This document shows positions 1 to 17,221 of a DNA stretch of 64,000 bases, in pieces. The stretch's first letter is position 1, and every line of letters begins with the position of its first letter. The notes below the pieces were generated by a model, which ran no database searches, was not told where the DNA came from, and saw nothing but the letters and a program-made list of their open reading frames with translations. The stretch is from Bispira polyomma (taxonomy: Eukaryota), in the NCBI GenBank assembly GCA_965649765.1, contig OZ287753.1, positions 22,382,001 to 22,446,000 of the forward strand, in the 5' to 3' direction. The position numbers and the translations under genes were made by a program.

Positions 1-1010
1 TGCTTGTCAAAAATTTATTGGCATTTGCTAAAGACAACCTATGGCCAAAAGTGTAAGTCTAGCATACCAGTACTGATTTATAGAGAAAATGTTGTTTCCA
101 CAAATGAACAAAAGTGTGAGGTATTTAACCAGCATTTTTTCAGGAAGTCAAAACCTCCAAATAATACTAAATTACCTAAATTGCCAGAAATATTGGAACA
201 TACCCCCTACAGCTTATGTTCAATACAGACATCCGAAGAGCAAGTGTACAAAATATTGCGATCCTTAAATAATAATAAGGCAAATGGTCCTGACAATGTG
301 AGTAATAGGTTACTAAAGGAAACATGTGGTGTTATCTCAAAACATTTAAGTGACCTGTTTAACAGCTCTTTATCTCAAGGCAAGGTTCCTAGTTGCTGGA
401 AAGAGCAAATGTATCTCCAGTTTACAAAAGAAAAAATCATAAGCAAGATATAAACAACTATCGGCCAATCTCATTATTGTCAAATGTTGATAAAGTACTG
501 GAACGAGTAGTCTTTTCTCACTTGTATAACTACTATATCCAAAATAATATTTTAACTTGGAGGAACTCCTGCTACAAACCTCGCGACTCCACTATTCATC
601 AGTTCATTGCCATCACACATAAAATTTATAGTGCTTTAGAAAATGGACAGGACTGTTGCTTTCTGTCACTTTCTGTCACTTGATGCCACAGCAGCTTTTG
701 ATCGAGTTTGGTACCCCGGTTTATTGCATAAACTTAAAAAAATGGGAATTGGTGGCACACTGTTTCAGTGGTTAAAAGATTACTTAAAAAATAGGAAACA
801 AAGAGTTGTGATTGGAGGTAAGAGCTCAAATTATATTGACATTAATTGTGGGGTCCCACAAGGGTCTATCCTTGGTCAATTACTTTTCTTAATTTATTTT
901 AATGATATATATAATAGCTGATGATCTTCAGTCTGAAAGCTTTCTATATGCAGATGACACATCTTTGTGTAGGCCAATATCAAGTCCTGAATGTGATTCC
1001 TTGCTTGTAC
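1..1010 (+). mobile_element. Degenerate CR1/L2-group LINE reverse transcriptase fragment
   Basis: Frameshifted ORFs 4-453, 393-683 and 643-921 carry KANGPD, NYRPISLLS, AFDRVW and GVPQGSILG, with YADD (TATGCAGATGAC) near 947. Confidence 0.9.
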
Positions 1011-1352
1011 TTGTGAGTTATCACATATTTTACTGTATGGCACTGGTCTCTTTAAAATTGATCGAACACTATTTGACATAGTACAGTTGTTTATTTCGCA
1101 CACTAATAGGTTCACTATTAATTACATTTTAATGTCACACATGTTACATGTCATCCTATTATTCATCTTTTGTACTATGTAATAATTTCTTGTTTGGCTA
1201 AATTATCACTTAATAGTGTACAGTATTCCTTTTGTACTATATGTTGTTGTTTAACTAAGTAAAATATGTTGTTGTTTTTTTGGACAAGAACCCCAAGTGG
1301 CTTGTAGCTGTGGGTAATTGTCGTTAAATAAATTATGTTTAAATAAAAACAA

Positions 1353-1845
1353 ATTAGTAAATGTGAAGTGTATAACTGTCAGATTAGTAAATATGAAGTG
1401 TATAACTGTCAGATTAGTAAATATGAAATCTATAGCTGTCAGATTAGTAAACGTGAAGTCTATAGCTGTCAGATTAGTAAATGTGAAGTTTAATTGTCAG
1501 CTTAGTAAATATGAAGTCTATAGCTGTCAGATTAGTAAATTTGAAGTATATAACTGTCAGATTAGTAAATTTGAAGTCTAACTGTCAGATCAGTAAATGT
1601 GAAGTCTATAGCTGTCAGATTAGTAAACGTGAAGTCTATAGCTGTCAAATTAGTAAACGTGAAGTCTAACTGTCAGATTAGTAAACGTGAAGTCTATATC
1701 AGATTAGCAAATGTGAAGTCTAACTATCAGATTTGTAAACGTGAAGTCTGACTGTTATATCAGTAAATGTGAAGTCTATAGCTGTCAGATTAGTAAATGT
1801 GAAGTCTATAACTGTCAGATTAGTAAATGTGAAGTCTATAGCTGT
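1353..1845. repeat. Minisatellite with ~30-bp unit (TGTCAGATTAGTAAATGTGAAGTCTATAGC), about 16-17 copies
   Basis: Directly visible tandem array. It explains the repetitive ORF at 1318-1581. Confidence 0.95.
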
Positions 1846-2051
1846 GAACAAAGTAGAATAGTAGAATCTAAATATCCTAGCCTCTGATATCTGAATACTT
1901 GATTATGCAATACAAAATTATATTTTCCTGCCTACTGTTTATAACAAGGTGAACAAAGTAGAATAGTAGAATCTAAATATTCTAACCTCTGATATCTGAA
2001 TACTTGATTATGTAATACAAAATTATATTTTCCTACCGACTGTTTATACCA
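1844..2051. repeat. Tandem duplication with ~105-bp unit
   Basis: GTGAACAAAGTAGAATAGTAGAATCTAAATAT... starts at both 1844 and 1949. Confidence 0.9.
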
Positions 2052-2364
2052 AATTACTAGTCTAAGAAAGACCCATTTATAATCTGAACAAAAACTTATT
2101 CTACCGCCTTGTCTAGATTGGTGGGGTGATGCCTCAGCAGCACCACTCTCAGTTCTGGTACCAGTCTAATGTGGTTAAAATAAAACCACTAGGGGTCATG
2201 GGTGCAAGTATATAAAGCATTGGCACCTGTATGAGCCCCATTATTGAAAATTTTGTTGAGAGGATAAAGTATTTTTACAAGTTTGGGGATTTTTGTGTGT
2301 TTCTACCCTACGAAATTTAAAAATAAAAAAGAACAATAATAAATTCAAAACAATATACCTCATC

Positions 2365-3384
2365 ATGCCTAAAGGAAAGAAATACAACTGTAAAAAATGT
2401 GCAGGGGCTCACGAACGCCCAGTGGGGAAAAATTGTGTTCGAGGACAAAGGCCAGCGCACGTGGTACCTCCTGTCGCCGAAGAAGTGGAATTGACCCTCA
2501 CTGACCATGCTGTGGCTACTAATGACCCCGTAGTAACCAATCAGGTCCTACTACAACTCCAGGCAATTAACCAGAAGATGGACAGCATGGAGGAGCGCGT
2601 TCGTGTCACGGAGGCAGCGCTGTGTGGCCCCAGCACTTCAAAGGTAATTGAAACTACTTCAACACCAATTAACCCTAGCAGTTCTAGTGAGGCAGAGCCC
2701 ATTGTACCCACGCTGGATTACCTGCGCTCGAACTCAGCCCTTCAACTCCAAGTGGACCAGAGATTGCTACAACTTCAGCAATTGAACGAATTGACCAACT
2801 CAGGTAAACTTAAGTCACAGAGGGGAGGGGGGGGGGGCTGATATTCCAATTAAAAAGAGCATAGATTGGCCACAGAACTTTGTTTTGACTGGCAATAAAA
2901 AGTTAGGCCTACATATGATGATCTGTCTTTGGTGCAGTTCACGGCCGGCTTCATTCGGTGTGTTCAGGAACAGAAATCGACGGAAACGCGCGAGGCGATG
3001 CTAGACTACCTAGCCAATCTAATGGATGATGCCCACGACTTCTCGTGGGACGCTGTGAAAGCATCCCACGCAATCCTACTCACTAATATGGAGTTAGATC
3101 GGCTAAAATGGACAGACATGGACAAGGTGGACAGAATCCGCCGAGCCCACGCCCAGCGACACATTCTTGCAGCCGCGAACGCTCCCAGCACTTCGGGATC
3201 TTCTAAAGGAAGCAAATCTCAAGTCAAAAACCAAGGGGTAACTTGCAGATTTTTTCAAGAAGGAACTTACAAATTTACCACCAGCCATAGAACAGCTGGC
3301 CAGCTATTTAAACATGTATGTGAGACCTGTGAGGGTTCTCACCAAACGAAATTGTGTGTCAAAAGATCAGCTACAAAAAACTAG
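2365..3384 (+). pseudogene. gag: gag-like ORF1 of YR retrotransposon 1 (frameshifted near 2830-2905)
   Basis: MPKGKKYNCKKCAGAHERPVGKNC N-terminal CCHC, a coiled-coil, and C-terminal Cys/His motifs. It is colinear with the intact gag of element 2 (14326-15321). Confidence 0.85.
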
Positions 3385-3409
3385 GTATTCACTGCAAAAA
3401 TGCAGTGAA
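3375..3409 (+). promoter_or_regulatory. Putative -1 programmed ribosomal frameshift signal (gag to pol)
   Basis: A AAA AAC (3375-3381) lies directly before the gag TAG, followed by a 6-nt spacer and the hairpin TTCACTGCA-AAAA-TGCAGTGAA (3388-3409). The -1 frame is open (ORF 3354-3836). Confidence 0.7.
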
Positions 3410-6093
3410 AATTCAGAAAAAGGAAAAAATTAAATGTTGTTTTAGAACTAGATACGTGTACAACTCAAGTTTTAAAGGTTATAAGTTGTTGAATGACCAC
3501 TCAAATTATGCATGTGTATATCAGTGTCTTAATAATGTGACTGTGGGCAATTTTGGGAGACAAAGTAAAATAAATTGTCCAAAAAATAAGAATACCAGCA
3601 AAGATTTAACAAAAAACGTTGCTTTATTAAGTTCCCCAGGTAATAAACCTTTTATGTGTTCTCACAAAAAGCACACAGTCGAGGAGTGGGCCCCAGTTAG
3701 TACAGTCGATCCATTGTCCCCAGTGAATCATACTTACAAATTGCAATCGACATGCTGGCTGGGGCCGCCTCCACATATGAAAGGAAAGGGGGGAGTTCGC
3801 CCCCTCCCTCTTTGTAATAGGTTTGAAGTGTTATAGAGTGCAATTGATATGTCTGGGGATGTTGTCAGCACATACAAGCAAATAGAAGACAGGGAGGGCA
3901 ATCACCCCCCCCCCCCTCTTACTGTTAGTATATCTAGTACTTTAAAACCACAATCCCCACGCTTTTTACAAAAGCTAAACACGAGGCCAGTTAGCTTACC
4001 AAATGAGAGAAAGGGGGGTGTTCTCCCCCATCCCACAGCTAGTACATTCAGTATTTTAAAACCACACTATCCATGCTGTGTGGAGCTGTCTCTAGAAACA
4101 GAAATTATGGGGATGGGGTCAATTAACTCACAAACGGGGATTGAAGTACACAGTGGGTGTACTACAGAGTATTCTAATAGTATACAGCCAGACAAATATA
4201 CCCCCGACTTACACAGTGTGGGAAATAATAAAACACACCCTGTGCCGTCTCTAGAAACAGAATGTATAGGGAGAGTTCCAAGTAACTCACCAATGGCGAT
4301 TGAAGGAGACAGTGTATGTAAGGCAGAGAACTCTGATACTATACAGCCAGACAAATATACTTCTGACTTATATAGTGTTAAAAATAACACACAGCCCGTT
4401 CGTGATGCCTCTCACTGTAGTACTTACAAATTGTGGGACAGTCAAAATAAATTAAAATTCGGTTTTATTCCTCTTAGTGAAATGGGGGAAATAATTACTG
4501 ACCACTCCAATGACCAATCCTTATACTCAGATATTTTTCACCTCCACAGAGACCTCAGACAAGATGGCCGTCATAACTACAAAGGATTACAAGTACCTAT
4601 TAAGTCACAACTGAATTATGAAGTATGGGGGACATATCTCAAACAATACTGGGACTGTGAACTCCCCCTGCTAATTAAGTTTGGGTTCCCCTTGACTATA
4701 ATAGGGAACTTAAGGCCAAGTCAGAGCAAATTAACCACCTTTCAGCTAGGCAGTACCCCAGCCATGTGGACCACTACCTCAAGGAGGAATGTGAGATGGG
4801 GGTCATATATGGCCCTTATGATAAACCCCCTATTACTGACTTACATACTTCTCCCTTTATGACCAGAGATAAGTCAAGTTCGAATAACAGGAGGGTCATA
4901 ATTGACCTCAGCTGGCCTGTGGGTGAGTCTGTAAATTCAGCTGTCTCCCCATCTGCTTATTTGAATAAAAATTTCGTACTTACTTACCCCTCCATAGATA
5001 CCATAACCAACCAAGTACTGCAAATGGGAAGGGGATCTTTTATTTTTAAGGCAGATGTAAGCAGGGCTTTCCGACATGTCACCATAGACCCTGGGGATAT
5101 AGATTTACTGGGCCTCTTTTGGAAGGGCTACTACATAGACGGCTCCTTACCTTTTGGGTACAAACATGGGTCTGCCATTTTTCAGAGACTTTCAGATGCC
5201 ATTAGGTTCATCATGCAAGGTGAAGGTCACACTATCTTGAACTACATTGATGACCTCTTATGTTACTCAGTTCCCAGCAAAATATTCCACACATATGAAC
5301 GTTTACAGGCCTTGTTGTCCGAATTAGGGTTAACTCTTAGCGAGAAGAAGTTAGTACCTCCACATACCAGAGTTATATGCCTGGGTATTGTGGTAGATAC
5401 TATGGACTTCACCACCTCCATACCTGAGGACAAATTAAAATCCATCAAAACTATATGCCAGCAATGGGTTAACAAAAAATGGTGTACCAAAACAGAGCTC
5501 CAATCCCTCCTTGGTTCCTTATTGTATGTCTCTAAATGTGTCAGGTATGCTCGGTTCTTCCTCAACAGGATGTTGCAACTCCTCAGAAGCAATACTCATA
5601 GTAAAACATTCACCATAGGTCCTGAATTTTATAAAGATTTACAATGGTTCAGACTATTTCTCGAAAAATTCAATGGGGTATCCTTCTCCTATCACAAACC
5701 CACCACAGCTATGGTAGAACTGGATGCCTGCTTAACGGGCATGGGGGGATATATGCCAGCCAAGTGTACACCCTGGTTATACCAACTGAACTACAATCTC
5801 AAAATATTGCTTCTCTGGAAATGCTAAACATTTTTGTGGCTCTTCAGCTATGGGGGGGCATGTGGCATGCCCAAAGAATACTAATAAAATGTGATAACCA
5901 GGCAGTGGTCAGTGTAGAACACGACGTTGACCTTAAGGTTATCCACATATTAGGTGAAAATAACAGGGTGGCTGACCTGTTATCACGTTGGTCAGATACC
6001 CCTCAAAATCATGCCCAATTACATAACCTGGTGGGCCACACTCAGTGGTGCCATGTCAACCAAGATTACTTACAAGTAAATGACCAGATATAA
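3375..6093 (+). pseudogene. pol: pol (long N-terminal region + RT + RNase H) of YR retrotransposon 1, with a stop, frameshifts and an RNase H deletion
   Basis: RRVIIDLS, DVSRAFRH, LPFG..GSAIFQ, YIDD, ELDAC, LEMLN, CDNQAVV and ADLLSRW are present. About 23 aa are missing after CDNQAVV relative to element 2. Confidence 0.92.
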
Positions 6094-6126
6094 AGTAAAG
6101 TATCCCTGTCGTGTAATGTATTTCAG

Positions 6127-7094
6127 ATGTCACCCCAGTCCAGCGGTTGCTGTTCACCAACGCCTCCAAAAAGCTACCTCTAGCCTTCTGTAGCTCCACG
6201 ACCAGGGCTTATAATGCCATGTACAGGATATTTGTGGCCTTTACTGCCTTCATTGACCAACCCCTTGCCAAAGTCACAGTGGTTGACCTCTTATCCTTTC
6301 TAGAATTGCGACACTATAACTCAGTCAAACCACCCCAAATGGCTAACTACCTGTCGGCCATTAAGGCCAACTCAATCATCCATAATGTGCCAGTACAGGC
6401 TTTTAGTGATCCCAGGATAGCCTACTATCAGAAGGCTGCCCTATTGGCCGCACCATTGCATGTCAAACTCAAGAAGGTCATTGATGTCAGTACTCTAAAA
6501 AATATTGTGTCTATCTGTAATACTACCTACATGGGTCAAGTGTTGAAAGCAGTCTATCTGCTTAGTTTCTTTTCATTTCTAAGGCTTTCAAACCTGGTAC
6601 CACATACGGCCTCACAATTTTCAGCCTTAAAACACCTAGCTGATGTTATGTTTCACCGAGGAAAAGCAATCATTCTGGTCAAATGGTCTAAGACCATGCA
6701 AAATCACAAAAACATTAAATTACTCACAATTCCTCAGCTACCGGATTCCCCCTTGTGCCCTGTCAGGGCCTTGCGGGCTGCTTTAGCTATAACACCTCCT
6801 GGCAACAACTCACCCTTGTTCCAATACAAACTGAATCAGACATGGCTTCCGCTCACTGACACCAGGGTCCGAGGTCATTTCAAAATTGTTCTTACAAAAT
6901 TAGGCCTGGAACACTCAGGGCTTGCCTTCCATGCCTTCCGACGATCAGGTGCCACCTTTGCTTTCAATCACAATGTCAGTATACAGAACATCCAGAAACA
7001 TAGCACCTGGACGTCCGACTGTGTATGGCGGTATGTCACCGATTCTGTTGATGCCGGTCAGCAGGTAGCTAATACTTTCAAGCAGCACCTATAA
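6127..7094 (+). CDS. Tyrosine recombinase of YR retrotransposon 1 (no own ATG; begins at a putative splice acceptor)
   Basis: Open frame with the RHRY tetrad context FLRLSNL, HAFRRSGAT and TWTSDCVWRY. Confidence 0.88.
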
Positions 7095-9619
7095 GGTACC
7101 ACCTTCCCCCTTTTTCTTCTACACTATTGGGGTTTGGGTGCCTCTAGTTAGTGGGATAGGCGTACACCTATCCGGGTATCCAGTATATCCTTTCATACAA
7201 TTAACAAGTTTTGTTAAAACTGAAATGTTGTTGCTTGTGTTCTCAGTTATAAATTGAACCTTGTCGCTTGTATTGTTGCTTGCGTTCTCAGTTGAAAATG
7301 AAATCTTGTTGCTTGTGTTCGGAAGTTAAAAAATTAAATATTGTCACTTGTAATGTTGTTTGCGTTATCAGTAACAAATTCAATCTTGTGGCCTTTGAAA
7401 GTTGAATTAATTTCAACTTTCTATCCATGTATATATATAACTAGTTAAAAACTTGTTGTTGCTTGTGTTCTTTGAAAGTTAACTGAATTATAACTTTCTA
7501 TCCATGTATATATATAACTAGTTAAAGGAAATTATTATTGTGTTCTTTGAAAGTTAACTTAATGTCAACTGTCTATATGTAGAACTACTTAAATAAAATT
7601 ATTCATTTAGGGGACCTTAAGTCCCCCCGTAAAGTCAATTGATTTATGGTAGCCTTAAGTTGCCATTAAGTTATGGTAACCTTAAGTTACCATAAAAACG
7701 TCAAGTTACCATACAAACAGTAGAATAAATATTGAACCGCATATGACAGTGTTACTCAATTTAACCTCTATCTGACCCTGACCCGACTGGTACACATGGA
7801 ACTGTGGTGGGGTGATGCCTTAGCAGCACCACTCTCAGTTCTGGTACCAGTCTAATGTGGTTAAAATAAAACCACTAGAGGTCATGGGTGCAAGTATATA
7901 AAGCATTGGCGCCTGTATGAGCGCCATTATTGAAAATTTTGTTAAGAGGATAAAGTATTTTTACAACCCACCCTTACCCACCCGGTAATTGTCTTTGAGT
8001 TTCCGTCTTATTGTACCACCATCCAAGGTGGCACAATGGTTAGTCATAACCTGGTTCTTCCACTGTGGTATGGTTTTCTGTTAAATCTGTTCCACCACAC
8101 TCATATATGGTTCTTGTAATCTTCATCTGTTACCATTATATGTTATTCCTTGGCCAGTGGCCAGGGTGCTTCTAGTTAGTGGGATAGGCGTACACCTATC
8201 CGGGTATCCAGTATATCCTTTCATAAAATTAACAAGTTTTGTTAAAACTGAAATGTTGTTGCTTGTGTTCTCAGTTATAAATTGAACCTTGTCACTTGTA
8301 TTGTTGCTTGCGTTCTCAGTTGAAAATTAAATCTTGTTGCTTGTGTTCGGAAGTTAAAAAATTAAATATTGTCACTTGTAATGTTGCTTGCGTTATCAGT
8401 AACAAATTCAATCTTGTGGCTTGTGTTCTTTGAAAGTTGAATTAATTTCAACTTTCTATCCATGTATATATATAACCAGTTAAAAATTTGTTGTTGCTTG
8501 TGTTCTTTGAAAGTTAACTGAATTATAACTTTCTATCCATGTATATATATAACTAGTTAAAGGAAATTATTATTGTGTTCTTTGAAAGTTAACTTAATGT
8601 CAACTGTCTATATGTAGAACTACTTAAATAAAATTATTCATTTAGGGGACCTTAAGTCCCCCCGTAAAGTCAATTAATTTATGGTAACCTTAAGTTGCCA
8701 TTAAGTTATGGTAACCTTAAGTTACCATAAAAACCTCAAGTTACCATACAAATAGTAGAATAAATATTGAACCGCATATGGCAATGTTACTCAATTTAAC
8801 CTCTATCTGACCCTGACCCTACTTCACTGGTACACATGGAACTGAATAGAGTTTCTACGGTACTGGTGATAGGATCGCAAACAGTCTAGTCATTGTATGA
8901 TTATAATATTCTAAGTTACTCGAGACACGTTCTACACACAAAGTACTAAATACCACCACCAACCCCAACCCCAACCCCCCCCCCCCCTCAAGTTGGCACA
9001 CATCACACTGATTACACTTTAGTGTTCAGTCCAGTTTCAAATTCTAATAGTCAAAGAAGATTAAGAGAAAAGCAACACAATGAGACAATCAAGTTTCTCC
9101 ACTGTCTATGTATACACCCAGTCATTTCACAGATCAGCATGGTTGTTACATTGTGTTTTCACCTCCCAATACTTGTATCTACTACAGTAACTACTACACA
9201 TCTCCAGTGTAATCAAATTTACCAGAGATGTCTACTATTTTCACTATTGGTGAGAAGTTTAGTTCCTGTAAGGAACTGTATGCTGTAGTCTAGTTTCTGG
9301 TCATTTGTAGTTGTGAAACGTGTCCCGAGTTTACCGTGCTTTTGACACATTGTACGTACCCGAGCTTTTGCCGTATAATATTACCATATCAGAGAGTTTT
9401 AAGACTACATGCTTTTGTTCTCTATGTACATATTAGTATAGTTATAGTTGAAGCATTGTATAAAGAGTTATTTTGAAATCTAACTTTACCTAACTGTTTA
9501 TTTAGATTCGAATCATACCAGTCATAGCAGATGCCATATTTATCAAACTTTACCCCGGTACCAAGTGTGCAATCCATATCTGAAATAAACAATGTACACT
9601 TATCTAATTGAATTAAATA

Positions 9620-9839
9620 TGGTTTTGACGTTGCTTTCAACAGCTTAGGTCATATCAGAAGGGCCAAATTCAATGATGGACAAAACACCAGTGCTAAAGC
9701 CAGTGCGTAAACCACCGATTTACGGCAAACACCTAGTAAACTATCTCATGAAGGAACAAGTAGGATTCGAACCCACATTAGTGAGAGGCCAGTGATTGTA
9801 AAGTAGGCACTTCTATAGTATTAGGCTACCAGAGACCCT
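9620..9839 (-). mobile_element. Degenerate tRNA-derived SINE
   Basis: The minus strand has an A-box-like GGTAGCCTAAT and a B-box GGTTCGAATCC. It shares CACTGGCCTCTCAC with the SINE family at 25822. Confidence 0.6.
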
Positions 9840-10747
9840 ACTAATCCAATTGAATCAGACTTTTATAACACTGTGGGTATGTTTTCATGTACTCAGCTTG
9901 CGGCTTGGTGTTATAGTGCTGGGGCTACATACATATATTTTGGACATAATTGTTAAGTTGAGACTATTTGTCGAAATGACCCTGTCTTATTTCTGGTCGT
10001 CCACTAGTCACATTTGTCAATACAAAATAAATCACTGTAAATTCTTTTTATATTCTTGCATTTCTAAACATTTAGAGATCAAATTTTGGAGACGCCTGTC
10101 AGCTGCTCTTGTAATAATAATTAACTATTAAATATTACTGTATGTTGAAAAGACACACATCAGTGACTCTATGTGAGTGTTTGGAGATAAGACAAGAAAT
10201 AAAAGAAACCCAATTGGGAAATATTAATGTTTTAATTCTATGTTAATAATTCTACATATATGTACATACTGGGTAGGGCCACCTTAAAAGAGTTAAGTGT
10301 GGGCCACTTAAGGTGACCTTAACATAAAATTTTTATGAATTTTGAAATTAGGTTTGGTGTCACTTTATGGTGACCTTTAACCAAGATAAAGTTAATTTAA
10401 GTTGAGATTGTGGTTAATTAAGTTGCCCTTAAATTGATGTAACCACAAGGTTTGGTCATTTAGGTTGACCTTAACTTGAAGTTAACCCAGATTGAGTTAA
10501 ATTTTTGGGGTCACGTATGGTGACTTTAACTGAGGTAAAGTGTAAGAAAGTTAAAAGTTTTTAATTTAAGTAAACTTAAAGTAAAATGAAAGGTATATTT
10601 AAGTATACAATATTTACGTAAAATAGTAAAATAAATGTAATATATAAATATAAGGTGGCCCTAAATATAGACATGTAAAAATTTTAGTATGCAATATGTG
10701 AAAGTTTGTTATAGGAAGCCCCAAACCCCAACTAGTGAGTAGAAAAC

Positions 10748-11722
10748 TACGAAAGGGCTGATTTGAAGGCCAGCGCTACCTGGTCAGTGGTGTTATGATC
10801 CTGATTAATATACCTCCACACACAGTCCGACGTCCAGGTGCCATGAGCCTAGATGTCCTGAATGGGTACATTATGATTGAATGCATAAGTGGCACCTGAA
10901 CGCCGGAAGGAGTGAAAGGTTATGTTTGAGGTTTGACAATGTAGACGAGTAAGAATGGTGTGCAGATTGGTCCTAACTCTTGAGTCTGTAAGTGGGATCC
11001 ATTTTAGATTTAACTTAAACTGAAACAATGGTGAATTATTGGTACCAGGAGTGATGGCAAGCAAGTTTTTTACAGCCCTTACGGGACACAGGGGAGATAG
11101 GCCAAGGTGAGGTAACTTAATAATTCTGATTGTATCTTTGGATTGAAGAGTTTTAGTCCATTTAATGATAATGTGCATGCCAGGAGGTGCAAACAAGATG
11201 TCACCCCTGGCAAGCTGTTGAAGGGGGGAATAGGAAGCCACACTATGTGGAACAAGGTTGGAAATTCTAAGAAAATAATAAAATGCCACCAAATATAGGG
11301 CCTTGAATATCTGGCCCATATATATTGAGTCACATGTGAGGATTATGTCTGTGAGCAGTGGAATATCAATGATGTTTTTTAGCTTTGCCCTAAAAGGTTT
11401 ATTGAGCACTATTGCTTTTTGGTAATATTTAATACGGTGGTCAGCGAAGCAAGAGGTGTAAGCCCGAATAATGCCATTTTTGCTTTTATTGCTGAAAGAT
11501 AGTTGGCAATAGATGAGTTTGAGACATTACTTGTAACCAGCACTTCCAAAAATGCCAGTATGAATAAGGGAGTAATATTTTGTAGTCTAACCTTTGTGAA
11601 GCAGGTGAAAGCAAGGAAAACTCTAAACATATGTGTGTAAGCCTTTTGTGTGGAGGGTCTAAAAGCTTGGTGGGCCCTGGAGGCAGCCTTGGCTGCCACG
11701 GATGCTAGTTGTGGAGGGAGAC
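10748..11722 (-). pseudogene. Tyrosine recombinase of element 2 (one frameshift; premature TAG at 10849-10851)
   Basis: FLRISNL, HSFRRSGAT, then QDI*AHGTWTSDCVWRY. The natural stop is at 10748-10750. Confidence 0.9.
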
Positions 11723-11728
11723 CTACAA

Positions 11729-14338
11729 TCAAATAGACCAGTCTATGTTTAATGTATTATCTTTTACCTCTACCCATTCCAGTTCAACTATGAGCTTAGC
11801 TAGCCTACTCTGGCTGTCTGAATACAAATGCCACCTAGATAATAGGTCAGCCACAACTTTATTTTTTCCTAAAATATGACTTGTGCTAAAGCTAATGTCA
11901 GCCATTGCTGTTTCCATATGGATATTTCTGGCTATGGCCGCCAAGGTACGGTCTTGAGTTCTACCTAAGTTAAGTATTGTAACCACAGCCTCATTATCAC
12001 AATGTACTAATAACCGTTTGCCTCTCCATTGGTCTTTCCATAGCCTAACTGCGACAAGTATATTGAGCATTTCAAGGTGAGTTATGTGGTAACTATTGTA
12101 ACCTCTGGGAATTTGCTTTTTGTATACCTGGCCATTACAGCAGCCCCCTAGGCCCTCAAGACAGGCATCTAGTTCTATGCAATCAGTGATTGGGCGATGG
12201 TCAAAGAAAGCTTTGCCATTAAAGGTGGGTAAAAATGTACAGAACCAGTTAAGATCCTGACAGAATTCTACTTCTAGGTTTATTACATGTGCACTATAAG
12301 CTGACCTTAGTATCTCTAACATTCTGTTGAGAAATAACCTTGAAACTTTGACACACTTTGAGATGTATAGTAATTTGCCTAGTAATGACTGTAGGTCACG
12401 CTTTTTACATGTACGCTTGCCTTGCCAGGATTGACATAACCCCATGATTTCTTGTAGTTTTCCTGAGGAGCTGAGACTGTGAAATCTACGGTGTTTATAA
12501 GCACCCCTAAGCAGACTACCTGTGCACTTGGACGCACAATTTTCTTTTCACTTATGTCAAAACCTAGGTCATGGAGTAAATGATGTAACAAATCAAAAGA
12601 GTACTGTATTTTAGAGGGAACGCCATAGCCTATAAAGTCGTCTATGTAGTTAGTGACGTCACAATCGTGACGTTGCATGATAAAGCGTACAGCGTCACTT
12701 AGGCACTGGAATATGGCACTTCCGTGCCGAAATCCGAATGGGAGACAAGTATCAACGAAGTACTGTTCATGTTTGAGACCCATAAGGTTGTAGTCCGCAG
12801 GGTCCATTTTGACGTGACGAAAGGCCCTACTAATATCTGTCTTATATAGAAGTGAACCCCGTCCCAATTGACGCACTTTTTGAGTAATGGTATCTATTGT
12901 AGGTAGGGTTAGCACAAAAGGAGTACTCAAATACTCATCTTTGGCTACCCCTGAATTGACCGAACTACCCTGTGGGAAACTGAGGTCTATTATGACCCTC
13001 CTGTGGACTGCCCCAGGCTTTTCTCTGGTCATAAACGGTGATATGTGTAAGTCTCTACATGGTGGTGCTGAGTATGGACCCAACATGGCCCCAAATTTAA
13101 CTTCTTCATCTAGATAAGCCCTGATATCATCTGGGAAATCAGTTGCTGACTTATGATTTTCTTCTTTATGTGATAATTGTTTATTGTTGTCGAAGTCAAA
13201 TGGGAACCCATATCTGATATGGTAAGGCAACTGCTTATCCCAGTAACCCTGGAGGTAGAAGTCCCATCTGTCAGCATTAAGCTGAGATGTTACTTGAATT
13301 TGTTCCCCCCTGAAGTTTGGAAGATTTGAATTTTTGATCTGTTCATGTATGCCAAACAAGGGAGCTGTTGATTTATTTCTTGCATCAAATACAGGAATTG
13401 TGAGGTCTCCCAAAGGAATAAAGCCAAACTTGTCTTGTGTTTGGTTATCCCAATTTTGAAAACATTTATTGGTACGCGCTAACTTCAGGAGTTCTTTAGT
13501 CTTAGGTCTGGCATGCAGTTGTAAGTCATACTTGTCTGAGTTTTGAATTACACTACTTAAGCCCGGGTTTGTGTTACTACCCTGCCGACAGTGGTTGTTT
13601 GCCCTAGTGTGAGTCACACTTAAGGTTTTCCTTTTTGAACCTGTCGCATTAGTGTGAACCGCACTTAAGGTTTCATTGTGTTCAGTGTCACCCAGTGTGT
13701 CCCCATCCCCCTCATTTACCAATGACAATGGAAGAAATCTGTTATGAAAAGTCCCCACATTGTTGCTCCCAATTTTGGGTTTCACACTTTGCCATTGTTC
13801 TTGGAGGGAGGTGCGAATTTTTCACAATAGGACTCACCATTGTGTTGGGGGATTTTTTTACACCTTGTACTTGTGTGTCGGTGTGTTGCACTGAAAAAAC
13901 ATTATTGGTTTCTTTCCTAGACCCATATACTTGTGGCCTAGGTACATTGTAAATACAACTTTTATGAACCTTTAAACAAGAACCACTGGACTGTGGCTTT
14001 TCGACATTTGAACATGTTAAGTGACAATTGGAAGTATTGCACACCCTTTGCTTATTTTTCCCTTCCAAAGTACCTGTGATTTTGCTGAAACCATTTGAAA
14101 GTATTTGGGCATATGTTTTGCCTTGAAACCTTGCCCAGTCTGCTTTCCAATTGTCACTGACATTATGTACACATACACTATTTTGAATCACTCTGGTTCT
14201 AGTATAAGCCTTATTATGTACACTTTTTTTACTTCTATGATTTAGTCCATTTTCATTGCTCGTTTTTACCCTTTTCACAGTGATTTTAGAACATTTACTA
14301 TTTGGCACTGCAATACTGCAGTGCCCTACTCGTTTTTT
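11729..14338 (-). pseudogene. pol: pol (N-terminal region + RT + RNase H) of element 2, frameshifted
   Basis: ORFs 13742-14308, 12379-13785 and 11729-12445 carry RRVIIDLS, LPFG, YIDD, ELDAC, CDNEAVV and ADLLSRW. Confidence 0.92.
14304..14338 (-). promoter_or_regulatory. Putative -1 frameshift signal of element 2
   Basis: Minus strand reads A AAA AAC (14338-14332), the spacer GAGTAG, and the hairpin GGCACTGCA-GTAT-TGCAGTGCC (14325-14304). The -1 frame continues into ORF 13742-14308. Confidence 0.7.
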
Positions 14339-15321
14339 GCACTGCTGTTTTTACGGCAGTCTTTAGCCGAGTGTGGGAAAGAACGGCCTGTGGCATGACA
14401 GTTTGCACATACATGCGCATACAATTGTCCCTTGGTCTCGTGGACCCCTTTCTGGGGACACGAACCCTTCTGAAAGAATTTACACGGGATGGATTTCTCA
14501 CTATTTCTCTTGGGTAGCCCAGAGCCCGAAGTTTGACCCCCCAAAACCTTTTGGGCATGAGCCCTTCTCACCCTATCGATTTTTGAGGTGTCTTGCCAAG
14601 ATAATTTCCCCTCTTCCATCTTACATGTTAACACGGCATGGCTACCTTTGGCCACTACCCAAGTGAAATCGTGAGAGTCTTCCATAAGGTCAGACATATA
14701 TTCAAGCATATGGTTTTTTGTTTCAATGTTTGTTTCTTCTCTAATTATGGAACTAAACCCAGCCACCCACTGGGCCATTGACAACGCATCGTAGGACATT
14801 CTGGACTTATTGCTACCACCTAGGATAAAGTTTTGGGGCCAGGGTACCTGACGCTTCACCCATATTGTTTCCTGACCGCCTCTTTGTGACTGGAACGTAC
14901 CTTGTTCATTAACTTGTTGTAGTTCTCGCAGTCTGCTATCCACGGCCACCTGTAGGTCTGTAGCTTGCCTCAGGGTCTGCAAGGACGGCACCACAGTCTC
15001 ACTCATCTGGGGTGCACTGGATGCTGCCACTGCTGTCGCTGCCTGTGACGCCTGGACGCTGACAGGAATCACACTTGTGTGTGTCCGACTGGGCTCCGTA
15101 ACACTATTCTGTTCATATTTGTCCATGCGTGAGCTCAAGTCATTTAGTTGTTTTAGAATCAACAGGTTAACCTCATTTGACAAGATATTCCCTGAGTTTG
15201 TATCACTGTTCACTACAGAAACACTGTCCATTTCTCTTAATACCACTTTACATTTCTCGTTTATAGGCTTTTGATGGTGTCCACCACATGCCTCACAATA
15301 ATATGTTTTTCTCGGTGCCAT
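14326..15321 (-). CDS. gag: gag-like ORF1 of element 2 (331 aa, intact)
   Basis: CEACGGHHQKPINEKC N-terminal knuckle and a CKFFQKGSC...H...HVCANC...H...C C-terminus. Homologous to the gag of element 1. Confidence 0.88.
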   Translation of the reverse strand: MAPRKTYYCEACGGHHQKPINEKCKVVLREMDSVSVVNSDTNSGNILSNEVNLLILKQLNDLSSRMDKYEQNSVTEPSRTHTSVIPVSVQASQAATAVAASSAPQMSETVVPSLQTLRQATDLQVAVDSRLRELQQVNEQGTFQSQRGGQETIWVKRQVPWPQNFILGGSNKSRMSYDALSMAQWVAGFSSIIREETNIETKNHMLEYMSDLMEDSHDFTWVVAKGSHAVLTCKMEEGKLSWQDTSKIDRVRRAHAQKVLGGQTSGSGLPKRNSEKSIPCKFFQKGSCPQKGVHETKGQLYAHVCANCHATGRSFPHSAKDCRKNSSAKNE

Positions 15322-16696
15322 CTGTATAAATATATGATACGGCTGTTTTGATACCTGTGAATATTGAGTTAGAGGTTTATTTTGTCAGAATTTGAAATAA
15401 AATACCGAAGGATGGTGCGAAAACTGTATACAAAGCCTGATAACGTCCCTCTAATATTGCCCCAACAAGTTGAAGCCAATAATCACAAGACTCAAAACAG
15501 AGTTATTATAGCACAGGAGCGCTGCAACCACTGGATCAATAAGCACAGTCGAGTCCTTCTGTAGACATCTATTTGATTAAAATACTAAAATAAAGACTAA
15601 AATGATTAAGATCCACGAAAAAGTTCAACATTTATTTTTGTGTATTTGCTTAAAATGGCGTCTTGCCACTTCAGATTTAGTTTTTAAAGTGAGGCAAATG
15701 TGTATTTTGGCGCCAGGCTGGGGTTTAATGAGGGCAGGTGACACCAATGAATCTTGGGGTCAATTGGTGAGGGTTACATGCTAGTATTATGTTACCTGAA
15801 GCACTGAACCCACTAGCACCTTCGTGCTACCTAGCATTAGATGAATTGCAATACACATTTACCACTGTATTAAAAATAAGAAGGTGTCGTTTACCCATAA
15901 TTGCACGCACCCAGTGACCCCCTTAACAGTAAAAAAGGACTATTCTGACCTACATTATCATATAGTATTACCTGTAATTATCTTATGCATGTTACTATTG
16001 CCAACAATGTGTGAAAGCAAGATTTACTGATTTCCCACTGTATTTTATAGTGTAGTTCCTGCTGAAAAGTGACATTTAGTGCTCGAAAAAATCACTTGTT
16101 GGGGGAATATACATGTAGTTATAGAGAGGGGCCTTTATTACAGAAAATATGGTGTTTTGGCAATATGGGGTTCTACTCTGTATGTGTGTTTTAGTAGTGA
16201 CCTGCCGCCCTTTTTCGCCTCTTTTTCTTTTTCTTAGCGTCTCCCGGTTCTTCTTGTAGTATAGAGTTGAGGACCTCATCCAGTGCGAGACTGGACTTCT
16301 TGATTTGGTTTAAGTTACATATTGTCACTGTCGGAAAGGCTGTCTCATATTGCTGTAGGATCTGAGTTAGAGAAATAACACAAAGAAAATTGGATAAAAA
16401 CCTCTTTAAGTAGAACTCTGATAAATGGAATGACCTGTTGAGCAGAAATTATTGTAAGGTCCCATCTGCTTTATTTTGAATTAAAATTTACCATGTTAAG
16501 TGGAAGTTCTGTTAAGTTGAACAAATGTTTATGGTCCGTTTAGGTTGCTTCAAAATCAGTTGTGAAATGGCTAAAATATTTAAGTTTAAATACCAATTTT
16601 TTACGTTTTTGCATCACCCATTTACAACTGCACTTCAGCCCCCTAAAGGTTCACCATGTTATGTATGAGCTAGAATGTCTGATAGCCCAGATATCT

Positions 16697-17221
16697 ACGG
16701 ACCTTCTATTATCCAAATAAATTCTCACTCTCCCAAGATGTCTGTAAATTAAAATAGAGGTTCTACTGTACGTTCATAAAATTTAAATTAAATTAATGGT
16801 TCAGATAATAGTAGTTCGGATAAGAGAGGTTTCTGCTGTTAATGTCCCACAATGCAACTGATTTTGTAAAAACTTTGGACAAAATACCTGTAAATAGAAA
16901 TACAGTAGAACCTCTCGTTATCTGAACGTTTTGGGAGAGCAATAAGTTGTTCGGATAATAGGAGGGTCGTGAAATTTCAAGAGGCATTTTAATACATAAA
17001 TGAGGAAACTGTCAACTTGTGAGATTTGTGATTGTGAAATACAGTAGAACCTCTATTATTCTATATTATTTGAGTTTAAAAACACAATTTTACTCTCCCA
17101 AACTAATTTTGTTGCTACTCTTTTGTACTAAAATGCAACTTCTATTTTAGGGACATTCTATTATTCAAACAAATTTTTATTACTCTCCCAAGATGTCCAT
17201 AAAGTAGAGGTTTCTACTGTA
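16697..17221. mobile_element. Cluster of Tc1/mariner-pogo-like MITE pieces (TA-CAGTAGAACCTC termini)
   Basis: TACAGTAGAACCTC at 16901 and 17040; GAGGTT(T)CTACTGTA at ~16770 and ~17221. The same terminus recurs near 28307, 42202 and 52748. Confidence 0.65.

Follow-up and report, generated by a model that had tools for sequence, protein, structure and literature searches.

In a 64,000-nt stretch of Bispira polyomma DNA (contig OZ287753.1 of assembly GCA_965649765.1, positions 22,382,001 to 22,446,000; hereafter the window, numbered from its first letter), we analysed the junction of gag and pol in two retrotransposons. Both encode a gag-like open reading frame (ORF), a reverse transcriptase (RT), an RNase H-like domain and a tyrosine recombinase (YR), all on the same strand, which is the forward strand for element 1 and the reverse strand for element 2. 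The order of gag, RT/RNase H and YR on a single strand is that of Ngaro elements, and by their predicted gene content both are Ngaro-like YR retrotransposons. They are distant from each other, with 43% identity over the C-terminal half of gag.

The gag of element 1 (2365-3384, forward strand) is spread over two frames in the window copy (ORFs 2260-2841 and 2899-3384), and that of element 2 (14326-15321, reverse strand) is open for 331 codons counted from the first ATG. These genes were assigned as gag by position and by their Cys/His knuckles, with no Pfam match above cut-off. In element 1, pol (3375-6093, forward strand) comprises the RT and RNase H-like parts, starts in the -1 frame with respect to gag and is broken by a stop at 3834-3836 and then by further frame changes. 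In element 2, pol (11729-14338, reverse strand) also starts in the -1 frame and consists of the ORF pieces 14350-13742, 13821-12379 and 12547-11729. YR follows RNase H directly, without an intervening methyltransferase; in five full pol frames, neither a methyltransferase domain (E <= 1) nor a protease had a Pfam match.

At the end of gag, both elements carry a cassette in which the gag-frame heptamer A_AAA_AAC is followed by a 6-nt spacer and then by a 9-bp stem with a 4-nt loop, a predicted frameshift stimulator. In element 1 these parts occupy 3375-3381, 3382-3387 and 3388-3409 of the forward strand, the spacer opening with the gag stop TAG (3382-3384), and in element 2 they occupy 14332-14338, 14326-14331 and 14304-14325 of the reverse strand, where the spacer GAG TAG contains the gag stop. 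An earlier note had described these cassettes from the letters, and its letters and coordinates proved exact, with the folds being predictions. The hairpin is the predicted fold of the 61-nt region of each element (z -5.0 for element 1 and -3.8 for element 2), and none of 200 shuffles equalled the stability of either region. With up to two mismatches, the combined pattern matched the window only at the two cassettes, against 0.00 matches expected.

The heptamer is conserved at the nucleotide level

The elements belong to a very large family. The first genome searches yielded 7827-9389 candidates per query, with no more than 150 scored for each, and the pattern heptamer-N8-CACTGC-N6-GCAGTG has 1188 exact matches in the 1.04-Gb genome, compared with 0 for a reversed control. 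We collected 241 loci, 20 of which (L182-L201) had been picked for a question about an early TAA codon that is taken up below and were excluded from the census. Among the other 221, 210 had a match to the gag C terminus, and these gave 180 unique copies in 57 subfamilies, a count that omits repeat fetches and a metagenome locus. Most census copies were found through gag or pol protein similarity; at most 10 came from the junction pattern and are biased towards the motif.

We located a gag-terminal Lys-Asn pair from the protein alone, independently of the nucleotide motif. It lies within the last 10 gag codons in 154 of 180 copies and is encoded as A_AAA_AAC in 145, as A_AAA_AAT in 7 and otherwise in 2, so that 152 of 154 pairs read A_AAA_AAY. 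Elsewhere in gag, only 2 of 41 Lys-Asn pairs are written A_AAA_AAC. This difference points to a constraint on the nucleotides rather than on the two amino acids. The residue preceding the pair varies, with six different residues encoded, and the run has the X_XXY_YYZ form in the frame of the upstream ORF that is expected of a frameshift signal. The 26 copies that lack the terminal pair include 10 of the early-TAA type; in the other 16, indels, deletions or point changes affect the region near the gag end, or our script misplaced the stop.

The -1 frame is open from the heptamer and has no common start codon

The first conserved segment of pol could be assigned a frame relative to gag in 156 copies, and was in -1 in 96, in 0 in 36 and in +1 in 24. 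The linker from the heptamer to conserved pol is open in 75 of the 96 -1 copies, which represent 24 subfamilies, compared with 0 of 36 frame-0 copies and 4 of 24 +1 copies; three of those four come from a subfamily with a variable run of C in the stem, and one has a deletion. Open -1 linkers are 193-304 codons long, and the other two frames hold 6-39 stops each over the same stretch. Upstream of the heptamer, the -1 frame closes within 1-49 codons.

No Met position is common to the 24 open subfamilies. Five have no Met before conserved pol, and in the remaining 19 the first Met falls anywhere from codon 3 to codon 195. A peptide motif, [KR][ST]Y[ARS], is found in the -1 frame 47-119 codons in, in 19 of the 24 subfamilies, with varied synonymous codons, and in 10 of 19 it precedes any Met. 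Because the -1 frame is open, no Met is shared and a conserved motif precedes the first Met in 10 subfamilies, the stretch immediately after the heptamer is likely to be translated without a start codon of its own.

The earlier note had described the -1 frame as open towards RT in both elements. This needs qualifying for the window copies themselves, in which the frame is open for 153 codons (element 1) and 198 codons (element 2) and reaches RT unbroken in neither. In sister copies of element 2, the frame stays open for 866-867 codons, through RT and RNase H; in the subfamily of element 1, none of 13 sampled copies is open beyond 248 codons. The peptides that the note gave as the beginning of the frame (KKLG... 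and KKRV...) are conceptual -1 translations, and tandem slippage would instead give Lys-Asn followed by -1 codons.

Several transframe peptide motifs (R..VYNS, W..DWA.F and [KR][ST]YA..L/V) are conserved within 120 codons of the shift site, as judged from the -1 frame of window positions 3375-3836 and 13742-14338 and from 24 subfamily representatives. Further along pol, most copies among L104-L113 and L182-L201 shift frame at one and the same place near codon ~694, just after the RNase H Asp motif and in either direction, which probably marks a hotspot of homopolymer slippage. One locus (L113, in the region of G000:C8:529462) has gag and pol fused in a single frame of 1040 codons; its junction letters are common to three more copies, and this fused lineage may have spread.

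Different RNA structures are predicted at one distance from the heptamer

In 48 subfamilies, the 45-nt segment that follows the heptamer had a median folding energy of -15.9 kcal/mol and was the most stable within 150 nt, compared with medians of -3.2 to -7.0 kcal/mol for segments that begin at least 30 nt before or at least 15 nt after it. In 37 of the 48, this segment reached z <= -2. Predicted pairing probability climbed at nucleotides 7-8 and stood at 0.94-0.97 at nucleotides 10-14, which places a predicted 3' structure 5-9 nt downstream of the heptamer. The gag stop is less regularly placed. It lies 3 nt past the heptamer in 36 subfamilies, 0 nt in 6, 21 nt in 4 and 18 nt in 1, and before the heptamer in 1. 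Both window copies have the stop inside the 6-nt spacer, as the earlier note had it, but not every subfamily does, and it is the distance from heptamer to stem that is the fixed feature.

The earlier note had also proposed that the stem is maintained by compensatory base changes. We aligned the window-type hairpin in 29 of 35 flagged subfamilies, having left out four that have other stems and two whose stem carries deletions, and 90.4% of the alignment cells pair. One stem pair bears the proposal out, as it is kept in 29 of 29 subfamilies with 7 double changes; the rest of the stem does so less well, with the outermost pair broken in 11 of 29, the innermost in 12 of 29 and four core pairs invariant. 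Given how often the outermost and innermost pairs break, the stem of the family is better described as 7-8 bp with a loop of 4-6 nt.

Distant subfamilies, with ~45% mean gag identity to the hairpin type, keep the heptamer and the spacing and have other predicted stimulators, namely a bulged stem of greater length, a hairpin whose loop contains the gag stop, and two pseudoknot-compatible folds with predicted second stems of 6-9 bp. Nearly all of these begin 6-10 nt past the heptamer. In 13 distant subfamilies, the inner six pairs comprise 66 Watson-Crick pairs, 10 G-U pairs, no A-C pairs and 2 others. Different predicted stems at one distance are stronger structural evidence than the covariation in the window-type hairpin.

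A scan for 5-bp second stems yields chance pseudoknots in the majority of sequences, so only the folds of the L152-L156/L220 type and of L215/L216 were counted, and these two are independent. In the L215/L216 fold, a single unpaired A separates the two predicted stems; in L154, a nested fold competes with the pseudoknot-compatible one. A loose pattern built for the pseudoknot lineage gave 20 matches (10 of them at gag ends) against 29 for the control, and is thus no evidence. In the gag tree, long branches meet and L215 is labelled a simple hairpin in error.

The recombinase is probably expressed separately

The earlier note had embedded the frameshift in a scheme of three products, Gag, Gag-Pol and a spliced Gag'-YR. 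In element 1, the YR ORF lies at 6127-7094 of the forward strand (Phage_integrase, E 7e-4, below the curated cut-off), and in element 2 YR lies at 10849-11722 of the reverse strand, in two frames in the window copy (Phage_int_SAM domains, E 3e-6). Each has a predicted phase-1 splice donor within gag (a slash marks the splice point): CAG/GTAAACT at 2798-2810 of the forward strand, with the intron expected to start at 2804, and AAG/GTACGTT at 14894-14906 of the reverse strand, with the intron expected to start at 14900. Predicted phase-1 acceptors precede YR at 6105-6127 in element 1 (TTTCAG/, forward strand, exon start 6127) and at 11722-11745 in element 2 (TTGTAG/, reverse strand, exon start 11722).

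These predicted signals are conserved across loci. A phase-1 AG/GTA donor was present in gag in 33 of 35 placeable loci (12 could not be placed), most of 47 loci have a pyrimidine-rich stretch and an in-phase AG ahead of YR, and the chosen acceptors have a pyrimidine score of 9-12 in 43 of 47. YR is probably made separately, from a spliced Gag'-YR RNA. A frameshift at the junction of RT/RNase H and YR was tested for and is unsupported, as this junction has no fixed frame (-1 in 21 loci, +1 in 14 and in frame in 12 of 47) and a heptamer-like run in only 4 of 47.

Frameshifting and other routes to Pol

Collectively, a motif conserved beyond what the protein requires, an open -1 frame, the absence of any shared start codon and varied stems make it very probable that -1 programmed ribosomal frameshifting at the end of gag makes Gag-Pol. 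The signal is real and conserved, and is probably functional. Most ribosomes would terminate at the gag stop; some would be paused by the stem 6-9 nt downstream, and on A_AAA_AAC the Lys and Asn tRNAs would re-pair one base back. Shifted ribosomes would then read through the linker of 193-304 codons into RT, and the product would be a Gag-Pol fusion with reverse transcriptase and RNase H. What we infer from sequence is folding in the cell, the slippage and how efficient it is, and the fusion protein. As an argument from conservation, the frameshift proposed in the earlier note held up against every rival that could be tested.

The rival that fares best, though we consider it very unlikely, is that Pol is translated from an RNA in which the gag donor has been spliced to an acceptor close to where the -1 frame begins, such as the CAG in the hairpin's 3' arm. 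The donor is strong, in phase 1 and nearly always present where it could be placed, and the phase of GCAG/TG in the hairpin matches in many subfamilies; splicing would also rescue copies with a stop before the heptamer. However, no position is common to the best in-phase AGs found within 100 nt (L154 has none at all), and their pyrimidine content is mostly weak (at most 8 of 15 in 15 of 24 subfamilies) compared with that of the YR acceptors. Splicing also leaves unexplained why the heptamer is fixed at the DNA level and why unrelated stems stand at a fixed distance from it.

Still less credible is initiation of Pol at its own AUG, on a subgenomic RNA or by internal entry or reinitiation, with the heptamer and stem serving, for example, packaging or termination. 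Some linker Met is available in 19 of 24 subfamilies, in some cases within 20 codons of the junction, and the linker is weakly constrained at the amino-acid level. None of these Met codons is shared, however, five subfamilies have none, and in 10 of 19 the first Met comes only after the peptide motif; moreover, the frame is open right back to the heptamer and closed 1-49 codons upstream of it.

Least probable of all is that the palindrome CACTGC-N6-GCAGTG serves in DNA as a binding site, for instance for the recombinase, or is a by-product of conserved codons, rather than an RNA stem: its core is nearly invariant across distant lineages and its 6-nt centre resembles recombinase sites, but other lineages substitute stems of different sequence spanning 19-30 nt at the same distance from the heptamer, and the 10 G-U and 0 A-C pairs among 78 positions of these replacement stems are a strand bias expected of RNA, to which synonymous Cys codons may contribute.

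Distribution of the signal and evidence against frameshifting

Relatives of gag were found in other genomes. Among gag homologues from ENA assemblies, 16 of 37 end in KNE or KND. In a more distant set, made up of the best 150 of 3946 representatives, 81 Gags reach the last Cys/His knuckle, and KN follows it in 53 of 81 compared with 112 of 982 background windows, a count that is somewhat biased because the profile used itself contains KN. In one protein (P0142), a KKRLGHC..AV peptide follows gag without a break, and another (P0015) has a tail equal to the frame-0 translation of the hairpin, which suggests that the same cassette exists elsewhere. A scan of viral contigs found no relative, and a scan of metagenomes found one.

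Several observations weigh against frameshifting, or against its generality. Copies and subfamilies are related, so the census counts are not independent. The CACTGC/GCAGTG core is nearly invariant and hence shows no covariation, and it may reflect the codons for His-Cys..Ala-Val. KN is missing from 28 of the 81 distant Gags, and the metagenome relative (L151, contig Ga0308008_1003517) keeps gag and an open pol in frame with each other, with a single TGA between them, which makes this distant Ngaro-like element a candidate for a readthrough layout. The signal is therefore not general to Ngaro. The counter-case comes from one subfamily (L045-L060, L104-L112 and L182-L201). By hand count, 24 of its 68 listed copies have TAA directly before the Lys-Asn pair, the rest being of a TCA type (21) or a GCA type (23). 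An early TAA would stop ribosomes before they reach the shift site, yet pol looks selected. In eight older TAA copies, shared pol variants comprise 16 nonsynonymous and 43 synonymous changes, compared with 108 and 85 among singletons (p 1e-4), and the main split among these copies has 20 synonymous and 3 nonsynonymous changes in pol (hand count). The linker of this subfamily shows no purifying selection on amino acids (89 nonsynonymous and 43 synonymous shared variants versus 84 and 35 single ones, p 0.68).

Either the early TAA has arisen repeatedly from open master copies, with Gag-only copies moved in trans, or pol is reached in some other way. On a first tree of 24 copies the TAA state was scattered (9 changes versus 8.0 when shuffled), and on a second tree of 30 copies it was clustered (4 versus 8.0). 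We looked for an open GTA precursor of the TAA lineage and found none. Assembly error is weakened as a source of the TAA, in that contigs from run X2 keep the letter at part of the depth, although this run may not be independent. A general expansion of the A run was rejected, as it was seen in none of 23 GCA-type copies and in no TCA-type copies of 10 other subfamilies.

Among the subfamilies sampled, only this one has G_GGN before the TCA/TAA codon, and we hypothesize, for this subfamily, that G_GGN would permit slippage of a single tRNA at the stop, at a distance of 13 nt from the stem. A minority of frameshift stimulators lie at 12-15 nt, according to PMC5009743. On a broader and rather unlikely reading, the locus would run a programme like that of complex retroviruses, with Gag, Gag-Pol produced with stimulators, hairpin or pseudoknot, that are interchangeable on one invariant heptamer, and a spliced Gag'-YR, to which the TAA lineage would add a second entry into pol. 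This entry would be a stop-stimulated -1 slip of the peptidyl tRNA at G_GGN_UAA, two codons before the old site, and would keep pol under selection despite the early end of gag.

Repeats and boundaries of the elements

The split direct repeats of element 1 are arranged as A1 - ORFs - B1 A2 B2 on the forward strand, with A1 at 2119-2280 and the remaining repeats within 7136-8719 (B1 7136-7684, A2 7805-7966, B2 8164-8719); A2 is 97% identical to A1. The B repeats contain imperfect palindromes (7643-7696 and 8678-8731), and upstream of A1 a tandem array of 28-30-nt units covers 1340-1900. No split direct repeats were found around element 2 within the window. Contigs from three runs of unrecorded library type connect position 15836 back to 10230, a join that may represent the two termini of element 2, in a circular or tandem form. 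No Rfam family matched window positions 1-17000 at E <= 1.

Comparison with known systems

How YR retrotransposons express a recombinase and a pol without a start codon is little studied. The gag-pol cassette is short, precise and testable, and offers a natural series of stimulators on one heptamer, which is useful for studying how frameshift stimulators evolve; the cassette also matters for the correct annotation of thousands of copies. That the mechanism is well known limits the surprise.

Mouse mammary tumour virus (MMTV) and human T-cell leukaemia virus (HTLV) type 2 use the exact heptamer A_AAA_AAC. The predicted signal resembles retroviral -1 signals such as those at the gag-pro junctions of MMTV and HTLV in its heptamer, its spacer of 6-9 nt, its 3' structure and a -1 pol without a start, and the fold predicted for L215/L216 has a single unpaired A between its stems, as in the MMTV pseudoknot. 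Unlike retroviruses, the elements described here have a tyrosine recombinase and no DDE integrase, and the five pol frames gave no Pfam protease; unlike retroviral signals, those of related YR subfamilies use at least four stimulator types. PMC5009743 places A_AAA_AAC among the most shift-prone heptamers on mammalian ribosomes, gives the usual spacer between heptamer and structure as 5-9 nt and describes -1 gag-pol layouts for long terminal repeat (LTR) elements, citing a 2003 survey in which pol occupied the -1 frame in 28 of 51 animal LTR retrotransposons. As in these -1 LTR retrotransposons, Gag and Gag-Pol are predicted here to come from one RNA through a heptamer shift site. Unlike them, the elements described here belong to a different retroelement order, have split direct repeats (in element 1) in place of LTRs and encode their integration enzyme outside pol, where its expression seems to depend on splicing.

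The mechanism is a known textbook one, in an element class for which the literature that we searched contained no defined site. The accessible portion of PMC5009743 contains no mention of DIRS, Ngaro or tyrosine recombinase, and no gag-pol shift site is defined in the accessible portions of PMC3783388, PMC6681497, PMC3266345, PMC9210276, PMC4157794 and PMC8547959. Our search found no defined gag-pol shift site for a YR element, though Goodwin and Poulter (2004) and Poulter and Butler (2015) may suggest one. The layout of Ngaro (order DIRS), including the A1...B1 A2 B2 repeats, is described in PMC9210276, PMC4157794 and PMC3783388, and the window elements agree with it in having gag, RT/RNase H and YR in one orientation, in giving no methyltransferase match and, for element 1, in their repeats. 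Poulter and Butler (2015), as quoted in PMC13003380, propose a Ngaro frameshift at the overlap of RT/RNase H and YR; the defined signal reported here lies instead at the gag-pol junction.

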